DNA of 53,313 nucleotides, filler included, from Dirinaria sp. TL-2023a (Eukaryota), in the NCBI GenBank assembly GCA_051941275.1. It is 4 parts of 4 records of this genome, joined end to end, with 100 filler letters (N's around TTAATTAATTAA, not from the genome) between each part and the next. Parts side by side here need not be neighbours in the genome. Positions count along the whole stretch, not along the records: positions 13,371 to 26,625 come from JAVEBF010000699.1; 3 more parts are not named here. One strand, 5' to 3'. Shown in pieces: positions 800 to 47,163 of the stretch. Both the position numbers and the translations under genes were made by a program. The notes under the pieces were generated by a model. That model saw nothing but the letters and a program-made list of their open reading frames with translations, was not told the origin of the DNA and ran no database searches. The first letter of the stretch is position 1. Each line of letters begins with the position of its first letter.

Positions 800-3700
800 T
801 CATTCTGACTCGGGTTTTACTACGACACATCTACTCTTCCGAGCCACCTTACCCGCCAGACTCGTGATCGACGAACTCTGAGTGACGTCAAAGATAGACG
901 CCTCTGCCTGTGCCGCGCTGGAAACCCAGTTCCTCAGCTCGACCGCAACGAGCGAGTCGACTCCAAGCTGGGACAGCGGGGCCGAAGCCTCGATAGAGTC
1001 CTCCGCGACAGCGAACATGTCCGCTAATTTCTTGATGATGGCGGCGGCCACAAGGGCGACGGCCTCGCTCCAGCTCGGCACCTGTTGCAAGCGAGCCTTC
1101 AAATCGATGGAGCTCGTCTTTGATCGTGCTGCATTCTCGATGAGGCTGTCGTGTCCCGCCGCCGCCGCCGCCTTGAGCGTCGAGAACATCGCGTTGTCCC
1201 GGAAGCTTGCTAAGTCCCAATTCGTCCCCGAGGCACGCGAGACACCGGTGATGACCTGGGAAGCATCGACGTCTTCCCTGTAAGGCGTGACAATGCCACG
1301 CTCGATCAGACGGAGCACTTCCTCCTCTTCCAATTCCGTGACGCCGGCGCGTTTGAGCAGCTCGACCACACCTGGCGTTTCGGAAACGTAGCCGACCGAC
1401 TTAACAGGGCCCAAGTCAAGGGATAGACCGGGTAACCCGTGCGCTGTCCGGTGCCGCGCAAGAGCGTCCTGGAAAGTGTTTCCCGCGGCGTAATTGCACT
1501 GGGCGGAGTTCCCGATGATCCCGCAGACTGAGGACAACATGATGAAGAAGTCCAGACTCAATGAGAGGGATTGTTGATGGAGGTTCCAAGTCCCGAGGAC
1601 CTTGGGGCGGACGGCAGCGTTGTAGTCGTCAAATACCATATTTTCGAAGATTGCATTCTGTAGAACAATAAGGGTCAGGACTCAAAGTGAAGCCATGGCT
1701 AGGTATCGTCGGACTTTACCTGAATTACCATGGCAGATTGGATGATGCCTTTGATAGGGGGCATCTCCGAAGCGCATTCGTTCATTAAGCTCGCAACATC
1801 TGATTCGCAGCAGATATCGCAGTCCTTTGCAATGCCTTTGCAGCCCTTTGCAGCTAGAGATCTTAAGAGGTCAACATTACGAGGCAATTCCGCGGTCCGA
1901 GACGCGAGTATAATATTCCTCGCACCGCGTTCCACAAGGCGATGAGCAATTGATCGACCAATCCCTCCTACACCACCAACGATGAGGTAAGATGCATCAC
2001 TCGACAGACGTGCAGTTCTATGGCTTGTGACCTAACGCAGTCAGTATTATCGTAAGAGGCCATGCGGATCTACTCTACCTTGATTAGATCTCCCTCTCTC
2101 GGAGCAACAACGATCTTGCCAAGATGCTTCCCGGCTTGCATTGAGCGAAGGGCTTTCTCGAGATCGGATATAGAGTATACAGTGATTGGGGCGACGGGTT
2201 GTATAGATCCTTCATTTATCATGCCAAGGATGTTCTTGAGTGCTCGAGCGACCACTTTACCTTTGAACTGCTGTATCTGCAGCAAGTCCACTGCGAAGAA
2301 AGAGATATTTCGTGTGAAAGGGGACATGTCGAGAAGATTGCCGGCTTCTAAGTCCCGTTTCCCGATCTCCACAAACCTGCCAAACCGGGCGACCGATTTC
2401 CAGGTAGCTTGGAGTAGAGGACCGGCCAGCGAGTTCAAAACAACATCGACGCCGTTGCCCTCTGTCATCGCCATCAAATCGGTCCTGAAGGACGTATTTC
2501 TACTGGAGAAGATGTGATCATAAGGAATTCCATAATTGGTATGGATTAGCTCTCTCTTCTCCTTGGAACCGACAGTGACGAAAACCTCAGCACCCAAATT
2601 TTGAGCGAGCATTATTGCCGCTTGGCCAACTCCTCCTGCCGCTGAATGGATCAGGACTTTCTCACCCTTCTCTAAGCAAGCCAGGTCGAAGAGTGAGTGG
2701 TACGCCGTGAGGAATGCCACAGGGATTGATGCTCCAATTTCGTATGTAATGCTGTCGGGCAACGAGATGACACTTGTCCAATGAACGCGGACATGAGTCG
2801 CCCAATGTCCTACCATGGCACAACAGACTCGTGCGCCAACCGCAAGTCTCTCTGGAACACTGGCGCTCAATCGCGTAATGGTTCCACTACATTCGCAACC
2901 CATGATCTCAGTGTCCAGCTGACCCATCGCCACCATGACATCGCGAAAATTGAGACCGAAGGCTTTTGGTTCAATCTCAACCCAACCATCAGGTAGTGGC
3001 AGATCAGCCTGTGGATCATCGTGCCAATAGAGGCTATCCATCATTCCAGGTATTTTAATATCCATACGTAGCGCCCGACCTGGCTGATGAAATGGCTCAA
3101 GTGCAGCTCCAAAAGCCAACGCTTCCGTGGTCATGTACTGCGTTTCGAACGGAGCCTCATACAATCTCGGAACCTGGATCGTCTCGCCGGATATTCTAAA
3201 CTCTGAATCCATACAGCTTCTGTCTTGCGGATAGTCGAAAGCGGTGGCGTATATCTTCAGCATCGCATTGACTGCGTTGGTTGTCCAAGGGTCGTCGTCG
3301 GTATTATCTAAAGAGATGTAGCGTTTTGTGGTATCCTCAGCTCTCAGTGTTCGGAGGAAACCAGTGCTCAAAGCAGCCTTCGGGATTTGGCAATGATCAC
3401 TTGCTTGAGAAGTAATCCAGAGGACACCTCGAGAGCCGAGAAGACACGTTTTAAGCGAATTGAATTGGGATGAAGTTGGTCGAACGAGAATAGACTGTTT
3501 GGGATCATCAAGGAAGATGAAGATTTTGGCGTGCACATCAACGGACTCCAATGGTTTCACGTCCGGCGTCAAGCCTACGACACTTCGAAAAGAATTCTTT
3601 AATCCATCGAGCCATGCTGCTGGAGGCGCCAAATGGTTACTGTAACCGATCGCCACAGATAGCGGAATGTCCGGTACGTTTCGAGGCTTCGCAGTAGACA

Positions 3701-6700
3701 TCATGACGCTCATTACATAGTTGGGGTCCTCACAATCCTGTACCGCTAAGTCCAAGCCACTGAAGCCTGTGCTTTGCAGGATCTCCTTCCACATATTGAC
3801 AGTCAACGAAGGGCTGTTTTTGCGCTCCTGCTCCTCGCCTGAAATATGTTAGCGGAGCCGTCAAGGCCATTTGCTGAACATACCTTTCCACCATCCGGGC
3901 AGAGTGCCAAAAACCAGCTGAATGTCCAGGACATCATTTGTTGTCTCGACGAGGATCAACTTCCCACCAGGCTTAAGCAGCTTTCTAACATGCGTCATGC
4001 TAGCTTTCATGGAGTGGGTGGCATGCAAGACTTGGCAGGCAATGATTAGGTCATAAGAATTCTCTTTGAAACCCTGTGCGCAAGGTTCGTGCTCGATATC
4101 AAGTGTCTTGTAAGATATCCGGTCACCCCAGGCCGCGAACCTTTCACGAGCCTGCTCGAAGAAACCAGCCGAGACGTCGGTAAAGTCATAGTGGAAAAAT
4201 TGCGGACTAGCACCAGAATCCCCTCCTAAGCTATCCAGAACACACTTTGTACATCCTCCTGTGCCTCCTCCAATCTCTAGGATGCTGGCTCGGGGCTTTT
4301 TATGCTTGAAGAGCTGTATCAATTGTATTACCTGGGCATAGCATCGATCTAGCCGCAGAGGTGCTTTGTAATAGTCGTAGAGAAGTTGCCCTTCAAGCAT
4401 AAGCTCCAAAGGCGCAACTTGCTGTCTCAAAATTTGAACAAGCTGTTTTCCAACCCGTACGACCAACTGACCGTCGACAGTACCACTGACCTCTTCCACG
4501 AGCGATGCGAGCTCGTGTTTGCTTGGCCGCCTCCACGTCGAATGCTTCAGTATATGCTCTTCCTGAAGTCTCATCCATTCGTAATAGCTTTTGTGATACC
4601 AGGATAAGTTTCCCACGTCAGTTGCTGTAAGAGATTCAAGGGTGTCGGAAATGAAGCAAAGAACTACACGCCTTAGATTTTCTTCAACGGCCCTAGATGA
4701 GGAATCGACAGGGAGTTTGAGTATGTCATGTAAGTTTCCTGGGTTCATTAAGTCCAGGTCGTGATTCCAACTCATCGTCAAGCATTCATTGGTCTTGTCA
4801 GCGTTTCTTGTTGAGCCTGTCATCCCCAGTGCTTGGCAAAAGAGGCCATCGATCTTCAATTTCGGCATAGCCTGAGTTCTGTCATCACAGAAAGCGATGA
4901 TGGAACCTTCGAAGCCTTGGAGGTTATGGCGACTGAGTTTCGCGTATGACTTTATGACATGGCCTGGATCATGGGAGATTTGGCTGGATACAAAGAGGAA
5001 TTTAATGTATCTGGGCATCGTTGCACTTTGTTCGCAGGAGCCTATTCCAGGCAAACTCGCATACACGCCTTGGAGGACTGAGTCCAGAGTTGTAGGATGA
5101 ATAACGTGACCGCACTCATGTTGTCCAGGCATGAGGGTGGCGGTATCCGCGATTGAGAATGTTGCAACGCAGCGGTTGGGCCCCGCAGCCAGTGTATTCA
5201 GGTTTCTGAATGCTGGACCGTGTATAATTCCCTGAGCCTGGAAGGCTTTGAATAGTTTGCTGGGGCTGATGAACATTGGGTAAGCTGCAGCTTCGAGCTC
5301 GAAATCGCTCGGTACGAATAACGGAGATTCGCTAGTGAGCTCATTGCAGGTAGTCTTATCGTCCTCCGTTGTTTTTAGTACACGAATCAGACCCTTGCAA
5401 TGCTTCACCCAAACACCCTTTTCAACAGTGGACCCGATCAGAAACTCGTTCCAGTCTCTTTCGAGCATCTTATCGCTGCACGGTCGGAGTGAGAGTTGCA
5501 CTTCCACACCCTGCGATGTATCTGGAATAATAAGAGCATTGCTGATGTCAACGTCGTGAATTTCGTAACCCAGTATCTGGATCCCATCTGCCTCGGTGAT
5601 TTGACGTATTGCTTCAATAGCCATTACCATCAGCCCTGCTCCAGGGTAGACAATGCCGCCCTGAACCACATGGTCATAGATCCATGGCACGTCCGAGGGC
5701 CGAATAATATTTCTCCATGTTGGAGTAAAGCTGCTTGTGCCTGCCATCAAAGACCCCAGTAGCTCATGCTGAGGGTGCTTTTTGAAACGATGAGATCGAT
5801 TCAGCTGAGACTCAAACCAGTAGCTTGTTTGATGGTTCCACGGGTAAGTTGGTAGATCATGAAGTACTTTGGGGCGAAGAGGAGTAGGCAAGTTGACAGC
5901 GCTGAGTTCAACAGGGTAGCCCTGACCGAGCAATGAGCAGACTAAATCTAGCATGGTGTCTACAGCGTCCTTGGCTCTTGACAAACACGATCCATAAGCA
6001 ATGTTTCTGCCCTTCAAGTCAGGCTGTGATAGTGTCTGACGAATCGGTCCTGCCAAAGCACTATGAGGACCGATTTCGATGATCATATCAATCTCTTGTC
6101 CTTTAGCGACTGTTTCAGTTAGCTGAGGAAGGCAGATTGCACGAAGAGCATCGTGAAATTCCACAATCCCAAGCATATTGTTTACCCAATGTCTTGGTGT
6201 CAACTGTGAACCGTTTGGCATTCGTTTTCCAGTCACAGGGCTAGCGTAAACGACACTGCCGATTTGACCTTCATATTTCGTGGTTTTGCGTAGCGCGGCT
6301 AGGTACTCTCCCTCGAGGGCATTCATGTGGTGTGAATGGTAAGCCACAGAGATTTTGAGCTTGCGGGCGAATATTTTCTGGCCGGCAAGATTCTGCTCAA
6401 GCTCCTCAATCGCTTTGATATCTCCAGAGACAGTTACGCTAGACGGGCTATTAACAGCAGCTATTCCAACTTTGCCCAGTGTGAGCTGCGAGATAGCCTG
6501 TTGAGAGTCTTCTCTGCCGAGGCCAATAGCGATCATACCACCACGAGCTTCTTCAGCTCTTGCTTCTTGCAACCGTTTGAGGTAAGGTCCTCTTGCAAAC
6601 ACAATTGCCATGGCGTCGTGGCAATCTATCGCTTTTGCGGCAAAAGCAGCAGCGACCTCTCCGCTTGAATGACTTGTGATGGCTGTCGGCCTGATGCCCC

Positions 6701-9085
6701 AGGAGGCTAAGAGCCGTACTATGCTAATCTGGACGGCAGTGCAGAGAGGTAGACTTATGGCGGTGTCATTCACACGAGAAGATTTCTCGTCTTTTGTGAG
6801 TTCCTCTGTTCTCATCAGAAACATCAACAAACATAATATGCTCATACTGATTACCTATTAGAGACCATGAAGCACCGAGCTCCTTTAGATGTTGATCGCA
6901 CTCATGGAGGGAGTCTTGAAATACGGGGTAAGCTTTTATTAGCTCTCTTCCCATGCCATACCACTGAGCACCCTGTCCAGTAAAGACAAAACCAAGCCGC
7001 GGGCGCTCAGAAGCTCTGGCCGGCTTTAGATTATGGTCCTCGAGCTGCTTCTTCAAGTCCCTTGTTGATCGCGCTGCAATAGTAAGCGACCATGGAAATC
7101 GGGATCGGCGTTCACTAAGGGTGTATGCTAAGCTGTCTAGCAAGCCATTTTCATCATTGCTTTTTGATAAGGCCAGATACTTTCCCAATTTTGCTGCCAT
7201 AGAGCGAGCTGAACCATCATCTTTCGCGCTTAGAAGAAATAGTCGTTTTCTCCCGCCAATGCCAATGCTTGATCCCTGAGTGTCGGAGGCGCTGTCAGAC
7301 GCGCTCTCATACGCACTGTCAACTACGGCCTCCATTTTTCCACCAATGGTGGTGCTGTTCAAGTCTTTCAATGTAAGTAAGTCGACGATTTCACCATTCA
7401 TGGCACTCGCATTTCTATCAGCGAGGCTTAATACTTCGATTTGTCTGCTTGCTGAACTCTTCCAAGATTCTAAACTTTCCATGATAACATGCGCGTTGGC
7501 GCCGCCGTAGCCAAAGTTGCTGATGGATGCTCGTCTAAAAGTATTGGCGGGCCACTGCTCTAAGCGTTGGGGAACCTGCCGCAGGTCAGTCTTCCACGGC
7601 CTTCAAAAAGTTTGAGGAATAGTCACTTTTAGTTTCAATTTCTCGAGATCAATATCAGGGTTTGGCTTGTCGTAGTTGATACTCGAGGGGATCAGATCAT
7701 TCTCGAGTGCCATGGCTACCTTGAGTATAGAGGCGAGTCCACTGACAGATTCCATATGACCCACGTTGGTCTTCACCGAGCCAATGAAAAGCGGTTTGTC
7801 AACAGGACGACCTTCACTAAAGACGTTGCCAATTGCCGCGGCTTCGACCGGATCTCCTGTGGCTGTGCCCGTGCCGTGAGCTTCCACGTACATTGTATCG
7901 GCAGGTGAAAGTCCCACGCTTCTGTAGCAAGCTCTTATTAGATCTTCCTGAGCGCCTTGGCTAGGCGATGTGATAGTCTGCGTCCAGCCGTCCTGATTGA
8001 GTGCAGTTCTCCTGATCACAGCTCGTACTGGGTCGCCATCCTCTAGAGCCTGCTGTAAGGGCTTGAGAATGATGGTCGAAACACCCTCACCGCGCCCATA
8101 GCCAGCTGCTCGGCTGTCGAAGGAGTACGATCGACCATCCGGACTAAGGATACTGTAGGAACGATTAGAACAATATAGAAAGAACGATGCAGCATCCTAC
8201 CCTAAATTTGAAAAAAGTATGTGGATGTCAGGATTGATGATGAGATTGGCTCCGCCAATGATTGAAATGTCAGACTCGCGGGTGCGAAGGCTCTGGCATG
8301 CTTGATGCAGCGCTGTTAACCCCGTGGAACATCCAGTGTCAATAGTCATGCTGGGACCTCGGAGGTCGAAGAAGTGTGAAATTCGATTGGACATCATGGT
8401 GCCACCGTTACCTGTCATAACATAGTGAGGAAAAGCCTGGGGATCTCTTATGATATTGTCCATGTAGTCCCGAAAAAGGCCAGCTGCAAAGACCGATGTC
8501 TTCGTCCCCGCAACTTTTTCCAAGGGAATACCAGCTGCAACAGTCAGGATATGATAGAATAGACAAGCATTTCCAATCGTTAACGCACCGTTCTCAAGAG
8601 CCTCAAAGACAGACTCGAGCAAAATGCGCAATTGCGGATCCATTGTCTACAAGGATGTGAGAGCAAATATAGAGTGTCACGACAGTGTCTTACAGATGCC
8701 ATTTCCACAGTCATGTTGAAGAAGCCAGCGTCGAATTGGCCCAAGTCCTGCTCCAAAAAGTGTCCGCCTTTGACATGTGTCTTGATGGCTTGTCAGCAGA
8801 TGGCAATTGAGCGCACAGCACAACTATACTCACCGTCGTACTCTTTTCACTGGTAGGATGGTAGAATGCATCCTTGTTGAACCTGCTTTCAGGGATCTCT
8901 GACCAAGCGGAGCGTCCGTTGGAGAGCAGATCCCAGAACATCTCTGGACTACTAGCATCCCCCGGAAACCTACAACTCATTCCAACAATAGCAATCGGCA
9001 TTTCTGCAGCCGGCGAAACATCCAACAGACCCTCTGATCCGGCCATTTGATTATAGAATGGTGAGACCCTGGCATCGTCGTGCAT
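800..9085 (-). CDS. Highly reducing iterative type I polyketide synthase (KS-AT-DH-cMT-ER-KR-ACP), LovF/MlcB-like, ~2609 aa, 10 exons
   Basis: Exons 9085-8834, 8780-8694, 8646-8589, 8534-8201, 8152-7627, 7575-6855, 6805-3884, 3838-2079, 2031-1720, 1657-800; all GT-AG and phase-consistent (7830 nt). Motifs: [65 protein letters not shown]; c[47 protein letters not shown]. The start could be the downstream Met (MAGSEG). Confidence 0.96.
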
Positions 9086-10123
9086 TGCATGAGGTTGTGG
9101 GCTATTAGATGGTGTTGTTGTAGGTGCTGAATAGTTTGGAGGAATTGAAAGCCTCGAACACTGTAAATGGGTAAGATAGATGATAAAACCATCGCGAAAG
9201 GCTGTGGGACAGCCATATCAACAGCTTCGAAGTCCAGCCAGACGTTCAAGAAGTGTAACGTTTGGCCCAAACCGACGGCACAAACGCGACAGGGTACAGA
9301 CGTACTGAAAGCCCAAACACAGCTTAAGAACTGCCTTTGATTACATGAACTATATACCACCTGGTACAGCAACGAAACACGCCAGAAGATATTCGCGCTA
9401 GACGATGGTCTTCAAGCACTTTAGCCTGTGAGACTCTCAGACTACATGACAAGCCATCAGAAGGTTTTAACTTGAGACTAGATCGGCAGCGCCTCTGCAA
9501 TTAAAGAGACCCTGGCGGACCAAGTGATTACTGAAGCTGCGCTTTAGAAGGGCTGCGGGTCCTCCGTATGCATGAAGGATTATCAGACCTTCCATGTCCG
9601 GGCCAAGAATAGCATACGTAGTGGCCAATTGATGGCTTGGAACGTGCATAGAATCTCGATGGAAATTCGTGAAGAGTGGTATGTATGCGCGATCGATTTG
9701 CACGAGCGATATTAGGAAGGTGACTTCTTGGCTAAGGCGTTTTCTCCAAGCGGATGATTAATCTTATATGTAGGTGCAGGATTTTAGTTCACAACCTAGT
9801 CATCGCCATCATGCGTTTCTCATCAAGATTTTGCCTGGTTTTTATCGCTGGACGAGTTTGCTTATCAACCACGTCTTCTGTGGCAAGCGTCAGTCTTGCC
9901 GTCCTTGTCTCTCTTTACGCGCGTAGTCTGAGTGTATGGGCGTGGTAGACATAGCATCTGCAGTGATGTAGAAAGGCTAAGGTATGGGTGTGCATGGTGC
10001 CGCGTGGTGGAGCTTTTAGCGTTCTGAAAATCTTTGCGATATCTCATGATCACTTCTGCAATGCCGTCAATAATACAGTAAAACCATTTCAATAAGTATA
10101 TGTATGCAAGTTGCGAGGTTATC

Positions 10124-10835: not shown

Positions 10836-12502
10836 CTACCACCCATCTAGGGCCTCAATGCGAACCGTCAAGTCCTCCTGCGGCTTAGCTAGCACATCGA
10901 AAATCATTGGCAAAGGGTTTTCGTGATCAACCGGCTTGATGTTGAAGCAGCCAATTAGCCCCACCAAGATGGTCTCTAGCTCTTTCCTCGCGAACAGCAT
11001 CCCAATGCAGTTCCGCGGTCCCTGCCCGAAGCTCAGGGTGCTGTGCTTCGCTTTCTTACCTTGTTCCTCAATTTCAAGCCAACGTTCTGGTCGGAACTCA
11101 GCCGCGTCAGGACCCCAGGCTTTTTCGCATCTCTGCAGGGACCAAAGACTCATAGCGAGGACTGATCTTGCGGGAATGACCTGCCCACCAAGATTTGTCT
11201 CCACCACTGTCTCGCGCTGGAGCACGGGTACGAGCGGAATCACTCGCAGAGTTTCGTTGAGGCAGGCATTGAGGTAAGGCAACATTTCGAGCTGGCAGGC
11301 ATTGCTCATGTCGTTCGTAGCTGGATTCGGAAGAGAGGTACGTATCTCCGCTCTAAGACGTTGCTGGGAATCCGGATGTTCTGCGAGAAAATAGATTGCC
11401 CATCCCAGAGCGACTGCAGTGGTAGCGTGGCCCGCACCGAGGAAAGTCAACATCTGGTCGGTGAGCTCCTCCTCGGTGAAAGCATTTGCTCTCATCGCAA
11501 CACTAAGGATATCAATTTTCTCGCTGTCCGAGGCGGTATATTCTGCTTTCTTCCTTTCGATGATCGTCCGACATTCGTCACGCATGGCTCTGATAGCACC
11601 TTTGATCTCTCGGACTCGTCTTACGGGAAGGTTGTACAATAGCCAAGTCGGCAGGACTAGCTCCAGTATTTGGGATGACCCTTGACCCATTCTGTAGAAA
11701 ACTCGTAGGTAATCTTGGAATATCGCGGTATCCGGCTTTTGGAGAGTTCTGAAGTCATTTCCAAATGCGGCCACTCCAATGACATCGAATGTGGTCCGGC
11801 ACGCCAAATCACTGACGTTGACTATCGGCGAATGCTCTGGGATTCTGCCGGGCTTTCCAATGTCAGCGGTAATGTCCATCCAGAGCTTTCCAACAAGTAT
11901 GGCTGTTTTGGCCCAGAACAAGGGTGAGAGGCTGTTGATATGACGGTAGGCAAAGGCAGGCATTAAATGCTTCCGCTGAAACTGGAATCCGGACGGCATT
12001 GTTAGTCAGTGTCCTCCTCGCAAAAAGGGGATTAGGTGAGACCTGCCTTCGCGTCTTCTCCTTCTGCCATTACCAGGCCATTTCCCAGAATTGGGCCGAG
12101 TTTCCGTTTTCTCTCCGTTGTCTTTTGCAGTGTGTAGGCCTTCTCGTTCAAGATTTCACTGATGAGCTCTGGACTCGTAACGAGGATACGTCGTTTCCCT
12201 AAGATCCCGGTGTATTGGATGAGCCCTTGGTTGGGCGTATCTTTTATGTACTGGTGTAACTCCGGTGCAGTGGGCTCTGAGAACAGTCTGGACAAGAACC
12301 GACCTTGCGCAGCAGTCTAGGTAGATGTACGCTCAGTCTTGAAACCAACTCTCCGAGAGCTTCTGATCCTTACCTTAGCCCATGGCACGTCTCGAAGGAC
12401 ATTGGATTTTTGGGGACGTATCGCCGCATTCCACACAAACCACACCAGGAGAAGAGAAGCACTGGTGCTTATTATAGCCAGGAGAAAATTCTCAGAGTAC
12501 AT
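10836..12502 (-). CDS. Cytochrome P450 monooxygenase, ~514 aa, 3 exons; probable PKS tailoring enzyme
   Basis: Exons 12502-12374, 12316-12047, 11981-10836. N-terminal TM anchor (FLLAIISTSASLLLVWFVW), I-helix AGHATT, ETLR, PERW, heme motif FGQGPRNCIG. Intron 2 needs a GC donor. Confidence 0.92.
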
Positions 12503-13270: not shown

Positions 13271-13370
13271 NNNNNNNNNNNNNNNNNNNNNNNNNNNNNN
13301 NNNNNNNNNNNNNNTTAATTAATTAANNNNNNNNNNNNNNNNNNNNNNNNNNNNNNNNNNNNNNNNNNNN
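13271..13370. other. Artificial contig spacer (44 N + TTAATTAATTAA + 44 N)
   Basis: Six-frame stop linker flanked by Ns; identical to the spacers at 26626-26725 and 39970-40069. Confidence 0.98.
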
Positions 13371-14549: not shown

Positions 14550-15555
14550 ATGATGGATCCTTTTGAAGAACTAGAGAGGATGGCAGTGAAAGCCAATGAT
14601 GAGAGCGCATCTTCAGACGATGAACCCTCTCTTGAGCAAGTCGCCAACTGGCAGCGCATCTTTCATTATTCTCGAACACAAGCGATATCAAAATTTAAGG
14701 AGCACAGAGCCAACATCGCCAGACCGAGCATTCCCGACGAGCTTTGGGATTCGATGCAGACAAGACTCAAGGGCTATGATCGTGAAGCATACGAGCATGA
14801 GTTGCTGCTTGACCACCAGTCTTCGTTCAGATCTGCTTCCCCTATGGCAGACGAGAGATCTTCTGGTAATGCATTGTTTCTGTTCAAGCTCGGCAAGGCT
14901 CATCTGAACGAGCCTCTGAGTACTATCAGTGAGGTTCAGCATGCCGCCCAAATGCCATCAATCCCGAAGAGCTTTACAGGTGTTGACGAGGACGATGACG
15001 AAGCGACCTTCTGTCAATTAGACGCTACTGCCAAGAAGCATATCAGCTCATACCTAGTCAAGATGGAATCTCGCTTTCAGCCTACATTTGTTGCTTATTC
15101 ACAAGCTAAAAAGGATCTGAGCGAGTACTCTGCGTATCCAATGCTCGGTGCAGATACCACGCTCCCTCAACACCGGCTGCAGAGTGGAAGCGACTTCGTC
15201 CTCCCTAAACAAGGGCAATACCCCGTCACATACTTTTTTTTACGGTACGCTCGCAGATCCTGAAATCCTCACTCGCATTCTAAATCTTCGCCATTCACCC
15301 ACATTTCAGTCGGCCACGATCACGGGAGGCGTGATAAAGACTTGGGGTCAAAAGTTCAAAGCGCTAGTAGATGGCCCAAGCGCAGCCAAAGTGCATGGGT
15401 GGGCTTATCGTGTGGACACTGAGGAGCAGGAGTTGGCCCTGCGAATATATGAGACAGCAAAGTATGAAGTGATCCGATGCGTCATTGCACTTGAGGATGT
15501 CACTGAGGAGCCAGGATGTACCTTCCGTTTCATCGATGCCGCCACTCTTACCTAA
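14550..15555 (+). CDS. AIG2-like/gamma-glutamylcyclotransferase-domain protein with a long N-terminal extension (~334 aa if one frameshift is corrected)
   Basis: ORF 14550-15263 ends QYPVTYFF and ORF 15148-15555 continues FFYGTLADPEIL...ALVDG...VHGWAY...LRIYETAKY, the GGCT/AIG2 signature (FxYGTL; LxxYE catalytic Glu). An 8-T run at 15234-15241 has one T too many to read YFFYGTL. Confidence 0.8.
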
Positions 15556-16320
15556 CTTTGTTTCTCAGCAAGAAAAATAAGAAGAATGCACCTAGGGCTT
15601 CTAAGTATACAGTATACAGCTTCCCTTTTCACCTGTACACGAAAACATGGATGCCTGCTTCAACATGGCGGTCGGCAGGATCGCATTCCATGCGTTGAGC
15701 GGTCACTGCATCACCACCTGCTCGAGTCTACCTCCAAGTAGTTCAAAGCAAGCATTAGCAGCAATGCTTGTAACATATGGCTGCGTGAACCCAACAAGAT
15801 TGGACCGAAAGCCTCGATGGATCTCGGGTCACGCTTGAAAACCAGCTGTTTTGTGAGCTTGTCTGTCCAGCCGGGGATGAGTCAGCACGGTGATAGCTAT
15901 AGACTCTTATGAGACTCAGGACGACGTTAGGCTGCGATGGGAGTCGACACCTCAAGGAATACCAGGAATATCATTGGCTCATAGTCTAGATCAGGGCTCA
16001 TTGTCAAGCCTTGATTATTCTAAAGTATATACCACTCGGGTGGTACGCCCGTTCCAAATTTTAATGTTCATCATAAGCCAAGTTCGGTACGTTACTGCCT
16101 GCATTGCGAGTGGAGTGCTCCTTCCTTAGCAGTGTACTCGCTGCAGATTCGAGAAAGGAAGTGGCGTTTGTGTGATTTCCATTTTCTTGCCCCCTTTCCG
16201 TGTCTTCTTGACTCTCTCCTCTCTTCCTCCTTTCCCTGCCATTTCGGGTCTAAGTACACACACATCGCACACACTGCACACATAGAAACAGTTTCACGCA
16301 CATACACAAACACGTCCAAG

Positions 16321-17554
16321 ATGCCCTCCCTACCTCCACCTTCCCCTGTGGAGCCCTCTTCCGTGTCAAGGCCTCGTGCATACACAAGCACCCTCCCGCG
16401 TTTGCCGTCCCCCGACAGCGGCTTCTTCTCTACTTCTCGTCCCCGCAACTATCTCCCCTTCAATTTTGGTGTCGAATTTGAAATGATTGTGCGACTAAAG
16501 GCTAATGATGTAGAATCTTTAGGCCCCGACATCTCAGTGTCACAGCTTCGCAATCATCACATCAAATTCTGTCACGACATAGCACAGCATCTCTCTAGAA
16601 ACGGCATGCTTTGCAGCTTTTTCGACTTTGGAGACGGCGACAAGCCAGACTACTCGAGGTGGAATGCAGTCATAGACACTTCGCTGTCGAAACATCACAT
16701 GCGAGATGGATTTTGTGAGCCAGACAGCAGCTACTCTAGAATCTAGTGTTGCTTGGACTAACAAAACTATCCCAGTTCCCGTTGACCTTGTATCACCCCT
16801 GATTTGTGCTGACGACAATTGTTCCCAGACGGTCGGCAAATTCTGGTCTGTCCTCTTGAGCCATTATGAGCTACGCCGGGACACCACCTGCGGCCTTCAC
16901 ATTCACATCTCATCTGCGACGCAAAATTGGACCCTGGACCAGCTCCGGTCGATGGCCAAGGCTATAGTATTCTGGGAACCTGCTACTGCCAGGTGTGCAC
17001 CGCTCTCAAGGCAGGATCGCTTTCAGGATTTCTGCCAGAGCAACATCAAAGCCGAAGTGCCAGTGGCTAGCTGTTGGACCCGTGGTCCGTTACGGGGTCT
17101 CCTCCAAGCCTTCGACTTCATCGACAATGCCGATAGCGACGCCATTGTGGACTATGTGTGCCCGGATAAGTACCGTGCCTGGAATCTTCGGCCATGCGGT
17201 ACAGGTGGCCATGGGAGTATCGAGTTCCGCAGACCTCCCGGCATCGTGACAGCGAAAAAGGCAAAGCACTGGATTGCATTTACCATGGCTTTCATGGAAA
17301 TGGCCTTACAATTTAATCCCTCTAGATTAGCTGAACATATACGGCGGGTCGAAGACCTGAGTAGCATGTATCACCCTGACTTTGAACGTCAGCTTCTGGA
17401 CTCTGCCCGTGCCATAAATTTATATCACCATTTAGACCCAAGGCTCCAGCAATATGATGAGCCAAGATCTCTGTATATGTGTTCCATGCATCCTCAGAGG
17501 CTTGCCATCCTTCGATCACTAGATAGTGAGTATTGTCATAGTCTCAGTACTTGA
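16321..17554 (+). CDS. Putative amidoligase (Amidoligase_2, PF12224-like; COOH-NH2 ligase superfamily), ~390 aa, 2 exons
   Basis: Exons 16321-16714 and 16776-17554 (GTGAGC...CTAAC...CAG intron). Motifs in family order: FGVEFE, DTSL, PVDLVSP, CGLHIHIS, KYRAWN, SIEFR. Confidence 0.82.
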
Positions 17555-24051: not shown

Positions 24052-25120
24052 ATGGACGCCTCCAACACCCATCCAGGTATTCTGCACCAATACGTACAGT
24101 CACCACCAGACCCTGGTTTATAGCAGGAACACGTACTAAAAACAAATATCCCAGTCGCACAAACTCGTCGCCTTCGAGCACCGTCCAAACCCCTCCCACC
24201 AAACCCCGCAAAACACGCTGCTCTTCATCGGCGGCCTCAGCGATGGCCTGCTCACCGTGCCATTCACGCCCTATCTGGCCAAAAACCTGCCACCCAGCTA
24301 CTCGCTGGTCGAGGTCCTGCTAACATCGTCCTACACGGGTTGGGGCGCGAGCGATCTCGGGCAGGACGTGAAGGAGATCGCGCAATGCGTCTCCTACTTC
24401 CGGAACCTGCGGTCAGGCGGGGGGAAGGGGAAAATCGCTCTCATGGGCCACTCGACCGGCAGCCAGGACGTGATGCACTACCTCGTTTCCCCCGCCGGCG
24501 GCGATGAGCAGCGGCCGAAGATCGACGGGGCGATCATGCAAGGCTGCGTCAGTGATCGCGAGGGCATGGTCATGTACATGGGCGCGGAGGTGCTGGATCG
24601 CAGCGTCAAGCTGGCGCAGCAGTACGTCAGGGCGGGGAAGGGGAAGGATATCTTGCCCGAGAGCGCGACCATGGGTTTCATCCCCGCTCCGGTGTCCGCG
24701 AAGCGGTTCTTGAGTCTGGCCAGCCCCCCGCCGGATTTTGCGGGCGAGGACGATTATTTTAGCAGCGACTTGGATGACGGGAGATTGGGCCAGACATTTG
24801 GGAAAATAGGCAAGGCGGGGACCCCGTTGTGCATACTGTATGGGGAGAAGGATCAGCATGTGCCGGAGTTTGTGGATAGAGCTGCGTTGGTAGAGAGGTG
24901 GATGGCTCATGTCCGCAGGGGTGGCGGCGTTGTAGACGAAGGATCTGGCGTGGTCCCGGGGGCAACACACACTTTGAAAGAATTTGGCCCACCGATGGAG
25001 GACTTGATTAGCAGAGCTCTGAAATTCTTGCACAAGCTTGAAGATAGAATTGCAATCACTGAACACTGCCCTTGGACAGGTGTACTCCTACCACTTCCAT
25101 CGAGTGGGAAACTAGACTAA
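24052..25120 (+). CDS. DUF1749 alpha/beta hydrolase (SidJ-like esterase family), ~335 aa, 2 exons
   Basis: Exons 24052-24093 and 24155-25120. Motifs GILHQY, LVAFE, LLFIGGLSDG, nucleophile elbow GHSTG, VSDRE, DDYFSSDL, GATH. Confidence 0.85.
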
Positions 25121-26625: not shown

Positions 26626-26725
26626 NNNNNNNNNNNNNNNNNNNNNNNNNNNNNNNNNNNNNNNNNNNNTTAATTAATTAANNNNNNNNNNNNNNNNNNN
26701 NNNNNNNNNNNNNNNNNNNNNNNNN
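26626..26725. other. Artificial contig spacer (44 N + TTAATTAATTAA + 44 N)
   Basis: Same linker as at 13271-13370. Confidence 0.98.
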
Positions 26726-31495: not shown

Positions 31496-34400
31496 TCAGT
31501 CCTGGTCGCTCAATTCGGCATCCTCCTTATCTGACTTCGCTAGTTGCGCCTTCCATACGCTGTTCGCTTGGTCGTGATCGATGTCCGGAAACACCAGGTC
31601 AAAGACATCCGAGTACCAACTGACCGCGTGGCCTTCGATACCCTCCTTAATGTTCTGCGCAGGTCAATCAGCAGATGCGGGTTACGAATGAAGCAAGGTC
31701 CCTTACCTCGGGCAGCTCAAGCCAATCCGACATATTATCGGTGGGGAAGACGATGGCTTTGGCGCCGACACGCCTAGCCGCTACTGTCTTCTCGCGCAAG
31801 CCTCCAATGCGAAGAATCTTGCCGGTAACTGTCAACTCTCCCGTCATGGCAACGGTGGGATCTAGTGACCGATCCAAGGCCAGCGATAAGAGCGAAGTAG
31901 CCATCGTAATGCCGGCAGAAGGACCTGTGAATCGATCAGCCTTTAGCATGTTGGTGTAACAGATATGGCTGGGGATGAGCATACCGTCCTTCTGAACCGC
32001 GCCTTCAGGACAATGAAGATGTAGTCTGGCCTTGTCGAAGAAGTGGTTTTCAGGGAACATCTTCGCCATTAGAGATTTCGCAAACGAGTAGGCAATCAGC
32101 GTCGACTCTTTCATCACATTCTTCAAGTTCCCCGTTCTTTCGAGCCCAGGACGTGAAGAAGCAGTGAGAGCACTCTCGAGTATAGACTCAACATACAAAG
32201 CTGCGCCTCCCATGCTGGTCCAAGCGAGGCCCATTGCTACGCCTGGCGGAGTCGTCTCGTAAAGACGGTCCGAGGTGAATATAGGAGGGCCAACATAATC
32301 TTTGAGGTTGGCCTGACTGATCGAGACATGGACACTATCGGGCACACTGAGACTTTTCCTAGGTTCGGCGGTGGTCTCTTTTTCAATGGATTGCGGAGTC
32401 TCTTTCACATCGCTTTCATCTTTCTTGGACTCCTCGAAAGCAGCCTTGCCTTCGTCCGTCAAGGCTTTCTCCTCAGAAAAGACTTCCTCCCCCAAATCTT
32501 GAATGATATTCAATGCCGACTTACGGTAAACCTTCTCAATCTGCTTTTTCAAGCTCCGTACACCGCTTTCACGACAGTACGATTTGATGAGCTCCTCTAT
32601 GGCACCCTTGTCAAGCGACACATCAACGTCCTTGAGGCCGCTGAGCTCCTTAGCCGCTGGTGCCAGATACCTTTCCGCTATAGCCATCTTCTCGTCTGCA
32701 ACATACCCAGATAGTTCGATCATCTCCATTCTGTCAAGTAAAGGCCGGGGGATGGTGTCAGTCATATTTGCAGTACATACGAAGAGGACTTTGGACAAGT
32801 CTACCGGCACATCCATATAGTGGTCGAGAAAAGAATTGTTTTGCTCTGGGTCCAGCAGCTCGAGTAAGGCAGAAGAAGGGTCCCCTTGGTGACCTCTCCC
32901 TATCTTGTCAACCTCATCGATGAGGATAAGTGGGTTCTCAGTTTGGCATTTCTTGAGGGCTTGTATGATGCGCCCTGGAAGCGCACCCACATACGTTCGT
33001 CGGTGGCCCTTAATCTCAGCAACATCCGTCAAACCACCCACACTAAACCGATAGTATTGCCGGTTGAGTGCACGCGCGATTGACTTTCCAATGCTTGTCT
33101 TGCCCACGCCGGGTGGCCCCACGAAACAAAGTATCTTTCCTTCGACAGTGCCGCGAAGCTTGCCAACTGCGATAAACTCCAGTATGCGGTCCTTCACATC
33201 TTTCAAGCCATGATGGTCTTCATCCAAGACCGTCATCGCGTTCTTGATCCCAAAGTTTTCCGCGCTTTGCTGGCCCCAAGGTATTTGCGTCAGCCAGTCC
33301 AGGTAATTCCGTGTGACGTTAAATTCTGACGCGGCCGGTTCAAGATGAACCAGCTTATTGACTTCTTCATCGAAGACCTTCCTTACGGCCTCCGGCATTG
33401 CTAGCTTGTTGGCTTTCTCACGGAATTTTTCGACCATCTTGTCCTTACCGTCCGATTCAATGCCCAGCTCTCGACGGATACCTTTCATCTGCTCCATAAG
33501 CCAATATTCTCTTTGCCGCTTTTGAATCTTATTCTCGACATCTTTGGAAATTTTGTTCTGTAATTGCGCGTTCATGAGCTCCTTCTTCAAGACCATTAAT
33601 GCTTTAGATAGCCGCTCTTCTACGTTTATCGTCTCTAGCACCTCTTGTAATTCTCCGAGTTCGCCCGCCGATACGGCAGCGGCAAAATCAGCTAACTTTC
33701 CAGGTTCGTCTAGGATGTTGCCTGCTGATTGGCTCATTGAAAAGGTGGAGATTTGATCACGGAAGAGGGGGTTAAGTTGCGCAACATCTTTGAAGACGTT
33801 TACAAGCTCACTGGTAACCGCTTTGATGACTGGACTTTTCTTTTCATATTTTTCTTCTGCAAGATTCTCCACATTGACAAGACTGACAGCAAAGTTGCGT
33901 AGGAACGATGTTGGCTCGTAGGCTTGGACTTGCTGCGAGTGGTGAGACGCATTAGCCTCTTCAAAGCTTGCGACAAGGTCTCCAGCTTTTTCAGGTGTTG
34001 GGGACCCCTTCGCTGTCTGAACATCAGCCCTCGAAATGTCTGTGGCGGGCAGAGCTGGATCAGCGACCGGGCTGTCGCCTTGAACTTTGGGAGGTATAAG
34101 CTTGGACATGCGGATCCTTCTGTGAGGGTACAGAACGGCCGTAATGCTTTTCTCTTCACCATTCACGGGAAATGTACTAGTGATTTGGGCGAAAACTCCA
34201 ACATCGTATACATCGTCGATGTGTTCTATAACATCCTTGTCCAAGGCTTCGTCCTTGAACAGGAATGCGCCGACGTAGGGTTGACCGCGCCGCATCATCT
34301 CTTGAATTGCCGCCGCTACATTAGGGTCCCGTATAGTGATTGCTTTGTAGAACCCTGGAAATAGTGGACGCTTTGCCATGGGGATAGCCATGACTTGGGG

Positions 34401-34913
34401 ATATACTTCAGGCACCGACGGTTTCTGTATCGCCTTTTCCGGCGAGGCTTTTCGCCCGCTCTTTCTCCCTCCATCGTTACCACCAGATCCAGACTCACCG
34501 CCTGCAGCAGCGCCACTACCTCCGACATTGCCATTGCTGCTCGCCCCTACAGAGCTAGAGGGAGATCTCTCTGGTGATTCCTTTAGCTCTATCGCATCCG
34601 TTGGACTGGCCGGCTCGCGCGCCGAGTCTTCCTGTGCCTCACTTCGGGCTTCTGATTTCTTCTTGTGTGGTATTGGATCGGGGATATCGCTCGATGCATG
34701 ATCTTTTCGTCTGGCCGAGGAAGTACTGATGTATTGAGATCTGCTCGGCAGAAGGCAGTCGAGCTGGTACCGCTGCCTAGCGAAGTTAAGTGGAAGAGAG
34801 CTGTATGTAGCATGATGTGGTGCCCAGGATGGCGAAACCAAAGACTTCCTGGCGTGGAGTCTACGGAAATTGTGGAAGGCCGATCTCCATGTCGAGGTCT
34901 GAATGCAGACCAT
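31496..34913 (-). CDS. PIM1: Mitochondrial ATP-dependent Lon protease, ~1101 aa, 3 exons
   Basis: Exons 34913-31985, 31924-31707, 31654-31496. R/S-rich presequence, Lon N domain (RPLFPGFYK), Walker A GPPGVGKT, Walker B LILIDEVD, catalytic DGPSAG after splicing, IGGLREK. Confidence 0.96.
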
Positions 34914-35952
34914 GCTACAGGGAAGCGTTTTGAGACTAATGAGGAGTTAGACACAGCGACAAGGATACAGGTGAGACTCTTATCAAAGAGATACTTTATT
35001 CTCTACGGTGGCGACTCCAGCTTGAGATGAAGCATAGCGTTTCCTTCAGAATACTCCGACACATTTTCCATTCTTACTGTAACGATGATGCATGACGATC
35101 TCCCGGTCAAATCCTACTCCGGTACCTTGGCAGGCTTGGCGGCAGATAGGGTTAGGGTTATAATCAACCAGCCGGCGGGAGGCACAGGCACCTCAAGGCG
35201 TACCCAAGCGAGCCAAGGGCAGACTCTCCCACCAAGACATGAGGGTGAAGCGCAAAGTTTTTTCATTTGTTGCCAGGTCACAATGAACGACTGCATCAGT
35301 GTGAGACAGCTGGAAGACTCGAGTTCAAGGGCGAGCTGTTTCTGTATTAGAAAGGCCTCTTGATACTCCGACTAGGTACATGTACATCATTTGGCTACAG
35401 TAGGCAAGCAATCTCCATCAGTGCTCACAAGATTTCCGCATGATACTCGCACAATCACAGCGAATTCAGCATCGGTCCTATAGAGGTTAAAGTGGCAACA
35501 CCAGGTTTGGTGAGTCCGGGACCCCAACTTGAGTATCTCATCTTCCAATTCATCGATTGTGAGCCTGGACGGTTGACCCTCGATTCTCTCATACCGCCAA
35601 TAAACGGTTCTATTGCGTCCAAGTTACATTTTGACGGTCACAAGACCCGACCAAAAAAATTCATTCACGTTCATCCACTATCTGTATTTATTGCGTTCTC
35701 GTGTTCAGAGGCTTGGGCATGATGTATGGTATTAGTTGTGACAAATTTGGGATGGAGTTAGGTTTGGCTAAGTCGCTCCTGCTCTGCCTAAACTTCTTCC
35801 GCCCTTGTCTCATCTCAAGCAATTTCCATTCAATACTGCTGAATTCCATACGGAAAGACCGTGGGACCTTGATATTTTTGACATCTGTTCTTCTGCTGCG
35901 TAAACCATCCTAGCACCTTCGTTATCCTGTATCGCTTTACCACGTATTGGCA

Positions 35953-39969: not shown

Positions 39970-40069
39970 NNNNNNNNNNNNNNNNNNNNNNNNNNNNNNN
40001 NNNNNNNNNNNNNTTAATTAATTAANNNNNNNNNNNNNNNNNNNNNNNNNNNNNNNNNNNNNNNNNNNN
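39970..40069. other. Artificial contig spacer (44 N + TTAATTAATTAA + 44 N)
   Basis: Same linker as the other two. Confidence 0.98.
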
Positions 40070-43685: not shown

Positions 43686-46323
43686 TTACGAATCCGCCGC
43701 TGCGCCAAAATCTAGCTGGACGCCGAGATGTTGTTCGAGCATCTTTGTCTCAATAGCACCGGCGCCAGTCACGATCATAACCTCAACTACTTCAGCCGCA
43801 GTCATCAACAGCTGGCTGGATACTTCAACTCCACTCCGTCTAGGTAGGAGCACGCCGGCGATGCGCGAGATCGCTGTTGCCGCCATGAAGATGTAGCCGA
43901 CTACGAATGGCAATTGGTCTTCTCGTTCGAGGTAGCCCGGACCGTATGTTTTCAGCAGTCTTGGTTTACACGAGTCATTGACTGAGCGAAGAAGCCTCCA
44001 GCAAAATCGATGCAGACGGAGATAGTTAATGCTCATCTCTATCGTCTCGGCATGAAGAGCGTTCACAAGGTCGAGGAGGAAATCCGTGGTTTTGATCGAC
44101 GTGTTGTCACGTTCGGGTCTTTTAAAGAGCGCGCCGGACGACGAAGTCTTGGTTTTCTTAGCTTGACCTGCACCGTTGCCCTTGGTAGCTAATGTGGTCT
44201 CATGATCCCCCTCCTCGTCGCTTTCATCGACTTTGGACTCGATGACTCGCTCTATTTGCTCGCGGGTCCACGATACCGCCGGCTCGTTGTTGCAAAATCT
44301 CCCAGCAAAAAGCTTCCCAACAGCACAGAGCTCTTTCAGACTCCTAGGCGCCTTTGAGGATGCGATGTTTGCGTTAGGTCTGCGGTTGCTAGCGAAGAAT
44401 GTCGCGGAGTATCCAAGACTCAGCAAGAACCTCTTCAAATATTCTTCCAGACCTCTTGGCGCATCACCTACAAAAAAGTTTTCGTGTCCGTGCAATGATA
44501 TGACGAGCTCCATATCAGTCCAGCTTTTAGATAACAGCTTCTCTTTAAGCACAGCGTTGTAGAGCTGAGCTGCGTACATCACCGATCCCCAAGCGTTCAC
44601 GAACGTAATTCCGATTTCTTGAAAGCGCATTTTAAGTGCGAACATGAACAGACCACAGATCACCGGATACTGTCGAAGGAGCTGGAAAGGCTCACCAGCA
44701 GGAATCTCCGCTTGGCGTCGGACCTGCATTACAAAATTCTATGAGTATGAGATCGAAGGCTCGTACAATGCTAGAAATCACCTTTTTCCGCTTGTCCGCA
44801 ACGACATCCTGTCCGACCCACTCGGTCATGACCCGTAACATTTCTGTGAGCTGCAAATCATTAGACTTAGGCCAGTTAGCTATACGTAAGGTTTTATGAA
44901 ATTCCAAGTTCGCTTCAATGGAAGCCCTGATATTGTTGGCATTTCTTCTTAGCTGATCGTGGCCCTGACTGACAGCTCCTTTCAGTTCATGTTGAGCATC
45001 CAGAAAGCACTGAGCGGCGAAGACTAGCCACAGGGGTATGTCTTTGCCGGGCGCCATTTTGCGGATACCACGCATGAGCTCGTCTTCAGCCAATGGGTAC
45101 TTTGACGTTATCATCGACAGCAGTACCAAGTCTGAAAAAGCTTCGAACATAACGAGCCGGTCGTCTTGAACCTTTTCTCTCGGAGACTTTTGCGTCCAGT
45201 GGGTTCGCATGTCACGAAATCCACAATAGCCAGGCTTGTATTGAGGAACGGATCCGGATCGAATGACGTCCTGTAAGCTAGAAAGAACGCTGTATGTAGG
45301 CATCATTATATCCTCTAGCAATTCGTAGGCATCTAGATTGAAAAGATCATCAGGTTGCTGCTTATGTCCGAGATCGTGTCCGCGATGAAGACATTGGGCA
45401 AGGTAGAATATCTTGACTATGAATTGGTAATCAGTCTTGGCCGGAAAACGACTGGTCAGATCTTCTTCCAGTGTTCGCACAAAGTCAATAGCTGTATTGA
45501 CAGTTATCGCAACTGCAGCAAGGTCGATTCCTTCTTGATAGGCGGTCCACAATCCACAGAGGAATCTTCGAATGTCTCTCACGTCCTGAAGAAGACAACG
45601 AGAAGCCAAATACTCTTCTTCTAGTGTCTGTAAAGTCTCAACCTCGTATTGAGATTGTGGTTTCCCTGCGGTCTGGGCAGCGGGCTCCACGTCCGGAGCA
45701 TCTATGAACTCTTGGGACGGCTCATGAACATCGAGTTTGCTGAACATGTTGTCAATCACTGTCGAAGATTCGGTTTCGGCGCTGTCATGAGCTGGCTTTG
45801 TGAGTCGATCGTCCACTGTCTCAGTAGGACAACGGGGCTTGAGTATCTCCCAGATCCTCTCCAGCACGCCAAGAAAATATGCGTGGGGTTCGTCTGGGGC
45901 ATCGGATGCTTCAACCTGTGAGCCATGCTGCTTACGAAGCTCTATTGCCCGATCCAAGACCTTGACTAAACTCGCAGGAACTCTGATGTAGGGTTCCGAG
46001 GTACCCACGATGTAGGAGGCCAACTCGACGAAATCTTTGACCTTAATGATGTAGGTTGGGGTCTCCGGTGCGCTGGCATTTCTTTGCACAGTCTTCGATG
46101 ATGAAGCCGCTTCTGCTTTAGCGGCTTCCCGGGCTTCCTTTCGCGCTCTGCCTTTCAATCTTGTGGAGGCTTTGGTAGTTTTGGAGGAGCTGCTGGAGTC
46201 AACATGATCCAGGAGATCGGCGGAGTAGCCACATTTTTTCGCCTTGGTTGCGAGCCATGTGGCGATAGTATTGGTGTCTTCTTTGTACGCTTTGTATTTT
46301 GACTGCAGCACTGAAGGCAACAT
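43686..46323 (-). CDS. DUF6604-like fungal protein, ~859 aa, 2 exons
   Basis: Exons 46323-44782 and 44723-43686. N-terminal YKAYKEDTNTIATWL, RAIELRK, HAYFLGVLE and TVNTAID motifs typical of this family; C-terminal PVICGL, AQLYNA, WTDM. Confidence 0.75.
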
Positions 46324-47163
46324 GATAGAGAATCCAAGAATCTTTTGACCGAGGCCAAAAGTGGATCTTACGATTGATCCGGCCTTTAACTACTGGAGCA
46401 GTTTTTAAGAGATCTGGACAGGCGAGCTCCTTGATTTTGAAAACGCTCAACAGATAGAGCAGAGATCAACACTTTTCCATTCGCTCTTATTGCAAGTTTG
46501 TGTTGAGTGGGGATCCGTCTAGCGTCCGCATCATTCCGTCTTGGCATTAATATTCCATCAGGGAGAAGTAAGGGGCTCGACGCCAGAAGGTAAAACCATT
46601 ACCTTAGGCAAGTTCTAGCTAGTGGCTAGGGAGGTCCGTGCCACCAATGAATCAACTAAAAGTCGCCCGGCCGATCACCTAAACTTATCACCTGAACAAG
46701 CCAGAAAGCTAATTGAATAGTAGTAATATCTATACTCGCCAAGGCGTAAATGTGGTCACCGACATAACCTAGACCTATTGAACATGGCGTCTGATTTAGG
46801 TTGAATATATGACTGATTATTGAACCATGACGTTTCATTATTGACCAGTCCATCGTCATTTCATTATCAGTTGGCTTCTCAGTTAATCTAGTTCGTAATG
46901 TAGGTTCTCGTACCTGGATCGAGGAATATACTTAATCTAAGACGTATAATCTTTAAGTAATATGTAGAGTCGACCGCTAAGGACATCTCTTGGCCCAACA
47001 CAAGATTACCCAGTCGAGTTATTCGCAAGAAATCACCCTCAACTTGAATTCCTTTCATATATTCATTCACGGCGAGCACCAAGCGTTTGATGCGCGGTGA
47101 TTCCGGTAATGTTTTCATTCGAAAGTCGTCTCTTATTCGTGTTACGCTTATGGGATTTTTTTG

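Follow-up and report, generated by a model that had tools for sequence, protein, structure and literature searches.

An amidoligase gene beside an N-terminally extended gamma-glutamyl cyclotransferase gene: a recurrent and decay-prone pairing in Pezizomycotina, viewed from a Dirinaria locus

What does it mean that, in the genome of a lichen fungus, a gene for a putative amide-forming ligase lies directly beside a gene for a putative amide-cleaving cyclotransferase? The question is raised by a 53,313-nt stretch of DNA from Dirinaria sp. TL-2023a (hereafter the window), whose second contig (positions 13371-26625; 13,255 nt) carries on its plus strand a gene for a GGACT/AIG2-like gamma-glutamyl cyclotransferase with a long N-terminal extension (hereafter GGACT-N), followed by a gene for a ligase of the Amidoligase_2 family (PF12224). 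An earlier note, made from the window alone, had drawn attention to the pair and proposed asking whether the two families neighbour one another in fungi more often than expected. A lone adjacency, seen in a single window, says nothing about chance; recurrence across lineages does, and by that measure the pairing recurs far above chance. The locus is the Dirinaria version of a two-gene module found repeatedly in Pezizomycotina, one that is dispensable and often decays.

We scanned JGI metagenome contigs with a GGACT-N alignment and took the best 80 of 112 confirmed stretches along with flanks of 10 kb at most; at 90% nucleotide identity these loci cluster into 49 lineages. When the flanks were searched with 84 amidoligase proteins (tblastn, E <= 1e-5), an amidoligase was found in 13 loci, and one further locus in which the match is cut by the contig end (L009), the sole gain of a relaxed search (E <= 1), raises the count to 14 of 80. 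In all 14 the amidoligase is the immediate neighbour of GGACT-N, its nearest edge lying 108-1378 nt away, and no amidoligase match was found elsewhere in the 802,295 nt of flanking DNA. The linked amidoligases all belong to the window ligase’s own subfamily. Counted by lineage, linkage is seen in 7/49; if lineages are required to have no less than 2, 3 or 5 kb of flank to either side, the figures become 5/25, 5/22 and 5/19, respectively. The arrangement of the two genes is tandem in the window, in L010/L014 and in L057, convergent in L019/20/24/25/47 (the L020 group) and in L009, and divergent in L011/L012 and L068/L069; in L013 a fragment of an amidoligase lies upstream. The more-than-expected neighbouring that the earlier note had wished to see examined is therefore borne out in fungi, always as immediate contact and in three orientations.

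The surroundings of the pair, by comparison, have been replaced. In an all-against-all comparison of flank open reading frames (ORFs) from 29 representative metagenome lineages and the window, amidoligase is the sole neighbour family common to more than three of the 29 lineages, and neither this comparison nor a Pfam scan of five linked loci found a third gene family recurring beside the pair; the neighbours at those five loci match Dcp2, DnaJ, adaptin, SNF5, MFS transporters, HET, SLATT_fungal and GST. Among database proteins, those identical to the window genes bear adjacent tags (Q9191_004890/004891, Dirinaria sp. TL-2023a), as do the members of a pair in Trapelia coarctata (MMC30_005468/005469), both genes of a pair in Exophiala viscosa lie on one 2.93-Mb contig, and in five further pairs the partners’ contigs are equal in size (34550, 27030, 2951, 3797 and 140391), true adjacency in these five being unconfirmed. 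On a 58-row tree of GGACT-N the linked rows are scattered over all of the major clades.

One neighbour kept through three orientations while everything around it is replaced fits selection for linkage or movement of the two genes as a unit. It might be argued instead that the genes have no functional coupling and stand together through inherited synteny or through the chance adjacency of two multi-copy families, given that linkage is confined to about one in five evaluable lineages, that GGACT-N is widespread without an amidoligase neighbour and that PF12224 relatives are numerous (3093 amidoligase representatives at E <= 1e-3). We consider this improbable: every one of the 14 amidoligase matches is an immediate neighbour and none lies elsewhere in ~0.8 Mb of flanks, the linked amidoligases come from a single subfamily, and the linked cases span the whole GGACT-N tree. 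Passive synteny in particular is disfavoured because it does not predict that a pair should persist through changes of orientation amid wholly different genes.

What, then, do the two genes encode? They lie 765 nt apart (intergenic spacer 15556-16320), co-oriented on one contig, as the ORF and contig coordinates bear out. The second gene begins at the ATG at 16321 with an exon (16321-16714) encoding a disordered Pro/Ser-rich N-terminus and then the FGVEFE strand, followed by a 61-nt intron (16715-16775; GTGAGC...GACTAAC...CCCAG) and a second exon (16776-17554, stop codon 17552-17554) encoding PVDLVSP, CGLHIHIS and GSIEFRRPPG. Exon 2 matches PF12224 at 16778-17551 with 47.7 bits (curated cut-off 22; E 2.4e-12). 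The spliced translation is, letter for letter, database protein P0001 (390 aa), for which PF12224 is also the precomputed annotation and which exon 2 matches at 100%. With FGVEFE, CGLHIHIS and IEFR all kept, the earlier assignment of this gene to an intron-containing COOH-NH2 ligase stands. Eleven amidoligase representatives checked for domains carry PF12224 only, save one with 2EXR as well, and a scan of NCBIfam gave no match. Against phage protein families, P0001 matches phrog_2443, labelled ‘amidoligase’ (E 7.7e-9), and phrog_7469 (E 3.8e-6). A scan of prokaryote genomes returned a single match, a fragment 49% identical to a fungal amidoligase on a 439-nt, low-coverage contig of a Pedobacter assembly (L081), which is most likely fungal contamination and not a bacterial homologue. 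We also observed that two aligned proteins (P0028 and P0012; alignment A4, columns ~220-245) carry a spurious insert of ~20 residues where an in-frame intron was read through, so that calls made on fungal contigs by prokaryotic gene callers need care.

A sequence search of the PDB with the ligase matched no solved structure. A model of P0001 built with 26 aligned relatives (predicted local distance difference test, pLDDT, 83; predicted template modelling score, pTM, 0.84) was compared with 48,161 PDB representatives in a VIA fold search, in which the top 17 matches (Z 8.7-11.8; the next at Z 6.5) are all glutamine synthetases (GS), Glu-Cys ligases, YbdK-type enzymes, gamma-glutamylmethylamide synthetase (GmaS), 1-naphthylamine GS or PafA/Dop; the top Foldseek match is YbdK (E 1.7e-5, probability 1.00). 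The model thus points to a glutamine-synthetase/Glu-Cys-ligase fold for the window ligase. Characterised enzymes among these matches activate the gamma-carboxylate of glutamate, and for this reason the ligase would be expected to form gamma-glutamyl amides.

The first gene is, as assembled, split between two reading frames. The frame that opens at the ATG at 14550 encodes the ~230-aa N-terminal extension (14550-15241), runs through a homopolymer of eight T (T8; 15234-15241) and ends at a premature TGA at 15261-15263, nine codons past the slip point. The cyclotransferase domain (15242-15555, stop codon 15553-15555) follows in the +1 frame, that of 15121, which contains no ATG and no Met anywhere; PF06094 (GGACT/AIG2) matches at 15121-15552 with 34.6 bits (curated cut-off 22.8; E 3.2e-8). 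The domain reads FFYGTL...LRIYETAKYEVIRC (also YGTLADP...YETAKYEVIRC...FRFIDAATLT), the +1 frame containing both FFYGTL and LRIYETAKYEV. One T fewer brings YFFYGTL into frame: with T7 the gene becomes one ORF of ~335 aa reading QYPVTYFFYGTLADP, like its orthologues, and 12 of 12 aligned orthologues (alignment A1) read QYPVxYF[FV]YG[TSA]L unbroken across the site. At the metagenome loci where the motif was located, the homologous T run has two to six letters and never eight. The database model of this gene (P0085, 239 aa) likewise lacks the GGACT domain and, past a predicted intron, closes with a few residues read out of frame; rescue of the frame by an intron was rejected, because the orthologues are collinear through the T8 site and no residues are absent on either side of it.

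Since the domain past the slip point is otherwise undamaged, with its frame open to the normal stop and the invariant family residues kept, the lesion is either very recent or an error of assembly. We lean slightly towards a very recent, real inactivation; an assembly error is only somewhat less probable. Much less likely is a regulated state in which a U8 run in the message is read through by slippage, setting the ratio of truncated to full-length GGACT-N. As the sequence stands, gene 1 can make a truncated N-terminal protein only. The earlier note was therefore right about the GGCT/AIG2 domain, and right that a ~230-aa extension is present, which is moreover conserved in orthologues, if not that the two are in frame with one another; the dead pseudogene it had named as a possible refutation is found in part, in that the window copy is frameshifted at T8 and the domain itself is undamaged.

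Beyond the window, the conserved N-terminal extension (~220 aa) defines a GGACT-N subfamily. The window’s extension shares 59-62% identity with its four nearest orthologues among those of 326-347 aa in which PF06094 is present, and among 33 matches to the extension 23 carry PF06094, most of them 313-358 aa long; the ~230-aa extension of the window gene itself matches no Pfam family above cut-off. A profile search found at least 375 GGACT-N clusters at E <= 1e-10, with Lecanoromycetes, Eurotiomycetes, Leotiomycetes, Sordariomycetes and Dothideomycetes among the matches listed, and a Protein Atlas search with the N-terminal region returned GGACT-annotated Ascomycota clusters only (0.81). Fold comparisons were made on the orthologue P0087 rather than on the window’s broken copy. 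Its model (pLDDT 76) comprises helices (residues 3-91), a small beta-alpha-beta-beta-alpha-beta domain (111-185) and a linker (189-217) that, though modelled with low confidence, is highly conserved: a Lys in it never varies and a Gln hardly does. Residues 223-336 match Arabidopsis AIG2-like 2jqv (VIA Z 14.2, rmsd 2.7 over 111 aligned) and human GGCT 2i5t (Z 11.0), and Foldseek likewise matches P0087 to the GGCT fold (E 1.4e-7), so that the C-terminal domain is predicted with some assurance to have that fold. In AIG2-like 2g0q both the YGxL motif and the Glu of ‘YET’ have aligned counterparts (the latter in VEGNEYERV); the ‘YET’ Glu, which we take to be the catalytic residue of GGACT/AIG2 cyclotransferases, is invariant in alignments of 23 and of 39 orthologues. 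The fold search with the N-terminal region gave generic matches only (Z 4.8, ferredoxin-like; ~4.5, UBA-like helices), and as it brought no specific match, the earlier suggestion that the extension gives target specificity stays a guess.

We put the probability at about 0.5 that the pair is a two-enzyme module for the ligation and cleavage of gamma-glutamyl amides. This explanation draws on a linkage that recurs through changes of orientation and on two folds that, going by the models, appear chemically complementary, one making gamma-glutamyl amides with ATP and the other cleaving them. An intact ATP-dependent carboxylate-amine ligase would activate a glutamate-type gamma-carboxylate, as its superfamily suggests, and join it to an amine, most likely that of a small molecule or short peptide; GGACT-N would cleave the resulting gamma-glutamyl amide to 5-oxoproline and the free amine. 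Both enzymes would then act on one pathway, adding and removing a gamma-glutamyl group, whether in the turnover of gamma-glutamyl compounds or as a protection/deprotection step. A predicted complex of P0001 and P0087, run without alignments, scored 0.02, which is not evidence either way.

Several findings weigh against the ligation/cleavage module. Linkage is the minority state, 20 of the 25 evaluable lineages having no amidoligase within reach; the earlier note had held that unlinked orthologues would refute the pairing, and most evaluable lineages are indeed unlinked (linked in 5/25), while the recurrence is still far above chance. Among the loci collected, the closest DNA relative of the GGACT-N gene is L001/L002 (82-84% protein identity to P0086/P0087); no amidoligase lies within 10 kb there, and the GGACT-N gene (in L002:1-21008 and in L001) is a lone island of normal GC content (0.51) in ORF-poor DNA of 13-24% GC. 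Several Teloschistaceae have an amidoligase and no GGACT-N among the matches listed, a weak point since 120 of 375 were listed. In the ligase itself, the window has Asp in PVDLVSP (codon 16789-16791), where all 17 others aligned have Glu (PVEIVSP, alignment A4); the change may reflect relaxed constraint, the partner gene being broken. The window cyclotransferase is not translatable as assembled, being out of frame with the sole start codon. Finally, no fusion to GGACT occurs among the best 150 of the 3093 amidoligase representatives (the longest of 507 aa), and GGACT-N matches no PHROG, that is, none of the phage cyclotransferase families, at E <= 0.01.

Loss and decay can be followed at several of these loci. 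When 13 linked and 17 unlinked rows of the GGACT-N tree were scored (28 rows of unknown state being left out), linkage proved labile, with at least nine changes of state among the 30. Partial amidoligase matches lie beside an intact GGACT-N at L013:8357-8623 (+; ~87 residues) and L069:9032-9436 (-; 85-90 residues), which are likely decayed copies and the mirror image of the window’s broken cyclotransferase. The DNA around GGACT-N in L001/L002 looks degraded by repeat-induced point mutation (RIP); a RIP-degraded remnant of an amidoligase was sought there and rejected, as scores in a purine/pyrimidine alphabet (45-53) fell among those of shuffles (43-66), with the positive control at 647.

The earlier note had pictured a system that writes and erases a mark on a protein or metabolite. 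In its protein form, the ligase would gamma-glutamylate a protein side chain, GGACT-N would erase the mark and the extension would recognise the target. PafA and Dop, which belong to the same fold class as the ligase (Z 8.7 and 9.1), do act on proteins, and the extension, made up of helices and a small alpha/beta domain, is conserved and joined to the catalytic domain by the linker with its invariant Lys and nearly invariant Gln. The fold matches of the extension are, however, generic (Z <= 4.8), and beside the pair there is neither a small ORF resembling Pup nor another conserved gene. The known GGACT enzymes, moreover, act on free gamma-glutamyl amines and not on intact proteins. For the bacterial pairing, its authors preferred a role in making peptides or metabolites to one in protein conjugation (PMC2588565). 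All told, we regard modification of a protein as unlikely.

A bolder possibility, which we hold to be more doubtful again, is that the pair is the eukaryotic counterpart of prophage amidoligase/cyclotransferase cassettes and serves reversible gamma-glutamyl tagging in non-self or stress responses. The ligase would then mark a particular target in the cell, be it the side chain of a protein or an amine used in signalling, GGACT-N would erase the mark, steered by its conserved N-terminal helical and ferredoxin-like region, and the patchy, decay-prone distribution with its occasional HET or SLATT neighbours would reflect a non-self or stress role and not bulk metabolism. Another idea is that of a conflict or allorecognition module in place of a metabolic one: an accessory system, patchy and quick to decay, with ties to the prophage cassettes, that might, for example, modify or disarm a cell component in non-self encounters. 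The nine or more gains and losses of linkage among 30 scored rows would suit it, as would the occurrence of remnants or broken copies of one partner or the other (L013, L069 and the window) and the homology of the ligase to prophage amidoligases (phrog_2443), which one paper tabulates under phage defence (PMC11318856). In L010 (14029-15759, -) and L020 (4337-7033, -) a gene with a HET domain stands 3 kb away from the pair, as does a SLATT_fungal gene at 2.8 kb in L012 (4860-5726, -). Since these fungi have HET genes in great number, their presence at two of five scanned linked loci is weak evidence. With other linked loci sitting among housekeeping genes, and with no NLR-type or toxin-like domain fused to either protein, such a conflict module is the least probable of the explanations weighed here. 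A third HET-domain gene was seen 1.2 kb upstream of GGACT-N in L062, and the nearness of HET genes may be due to chance.

The rest of the window was also surveyed. Its four contigs are joined by spacers, each of 44 N + TTAATTAATTAA + 44 N (13271-13370, 26626-26725 and 39970-40069), and since these join separate contigs, gene neighbourhoods cannot be read across them. The first contig carries a highly reducing polyketide synthase (HR-PKS; KS, AT, DH, C-methyltransferase, ER, KR and ACP) at 800-9217 (-), its frame lying in six ORFs with an in-frame stop at 7603-7605, breaks that represent introns or damage, and after it a cytochrome P450 at 10836-12005 (-). Being on another contig, these two genes are uninformative on the pair, and membership of the pair in an HR-PKS/P450 cluster was rejected. 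On the same contig as the pair lies a gene for a DUF1749 protein (24140-25120, +), and on other contigs lie genes for a Lon protease (31668-34946, -) and a DUF6604 protein (44692-46389, -), none with an evident link to the pair.

The association of amidoligases with cyclotransferases has been a comparative-genomics prediction since 2008, and the fungal linkage adds evidence from eukaryotes, independent of that prediction, that the two act in one shared pathway, because the pair is kept, in moulds and lichen fungi alike, in three orientations, among unrelated neighbours and in several classes of Pezizomycotina (as judged from best database matches). It further defines a widespread fungal GGACT subfamily (the >= 375 clusters above) with an uncharacterised N-terminal region. 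Exophiala and fungi of Sordariales or Xylariales type offer tractable hosts in which to find the substrate; the Dirinaria locus is not the one to study, as one of its partners is broken or mis-assembled.

How does the fungal pair compare with known systems? The statement in Pfam, repeated in the earlier note, that amidoligases neighbour AIG2-family proteins in Firmicutes can be traced to Iyer, Burroughs and Aravind (2008), who describe this neighbourhood and propose that it serves peptide or metabolite synthesis (PMC2588565); the small-molecule or short-peptide substrate that is probable for the fungal pair agrees with that proposal. In Clostridium prophages, phrog_2443 lies two ORFs from a gamma-glutamyl cyclotransferase (PMC11318856). 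The literature searched describes no amidoligase/cyclotransferase pair in fungi, in line with what the earlier note had supposed (a 2009 review that possibly names fungal members was not covered), and demonstrates no function for Amidoligase_2 or its cyclotransferase partner. We know of no biochemical function for the bacterial and prophage cassettes or for the fungal pair. The cassettes and the fungal pair are alike in that the two families are close neighbours and that the window ligase matches both phrog_2443 and PF12224. The fungal pair differs in consisting of separate transcription units of variable orientation, with an intron in the ligase gene, in being linked in about a fifth of lineages, and in its cyclotransferase, which adds a conserved ~220-aa extension outside the PF06094 model and is without a match to the phage cyclotransferase PHROGs.

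Taken singly, each partner also has better-known relatives. The ligase model shares its fold with YbdK/GCS2, Glu-Cys ligase, GmaS and 1-naphthylamine GS (Z 9.3-11.8), at an identity of 8-13% over the top 17 fold matches; unlike GS it is much smaller and, judging from the alignment ranges, lacks the N-terminal beta-grasp domain. A gamma-glutamyl group that is removed again has precedents in gliotoxin and butirosin biosynthesis, where GliK and BtrG take gamma-glutamyl groups off biosynthetic intermediates and release 5-oxoproline (PMC10086836). GGACT-N would resemble these two enzymes in fold and chemistry, and it does not lie inside a recognisable biosynthetic cluster, no conserved core or tailoring enzyme having been found beside the pair. 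The partner ligase of butirosin biosynthesis, too, is of another kind, an ATP-grasp enzyme and not one of GS fold. With human GGACT and Arabidopsis AIG2-like protein, GGACT-N shares the predicted GGCT fold and its motifs, while its extra N-terminal region sets it apart from these as from GliK and BtrG. The pairing as such had thus already been predicted for Firmicutes and prophages, and the fungal pair is a variant of it.

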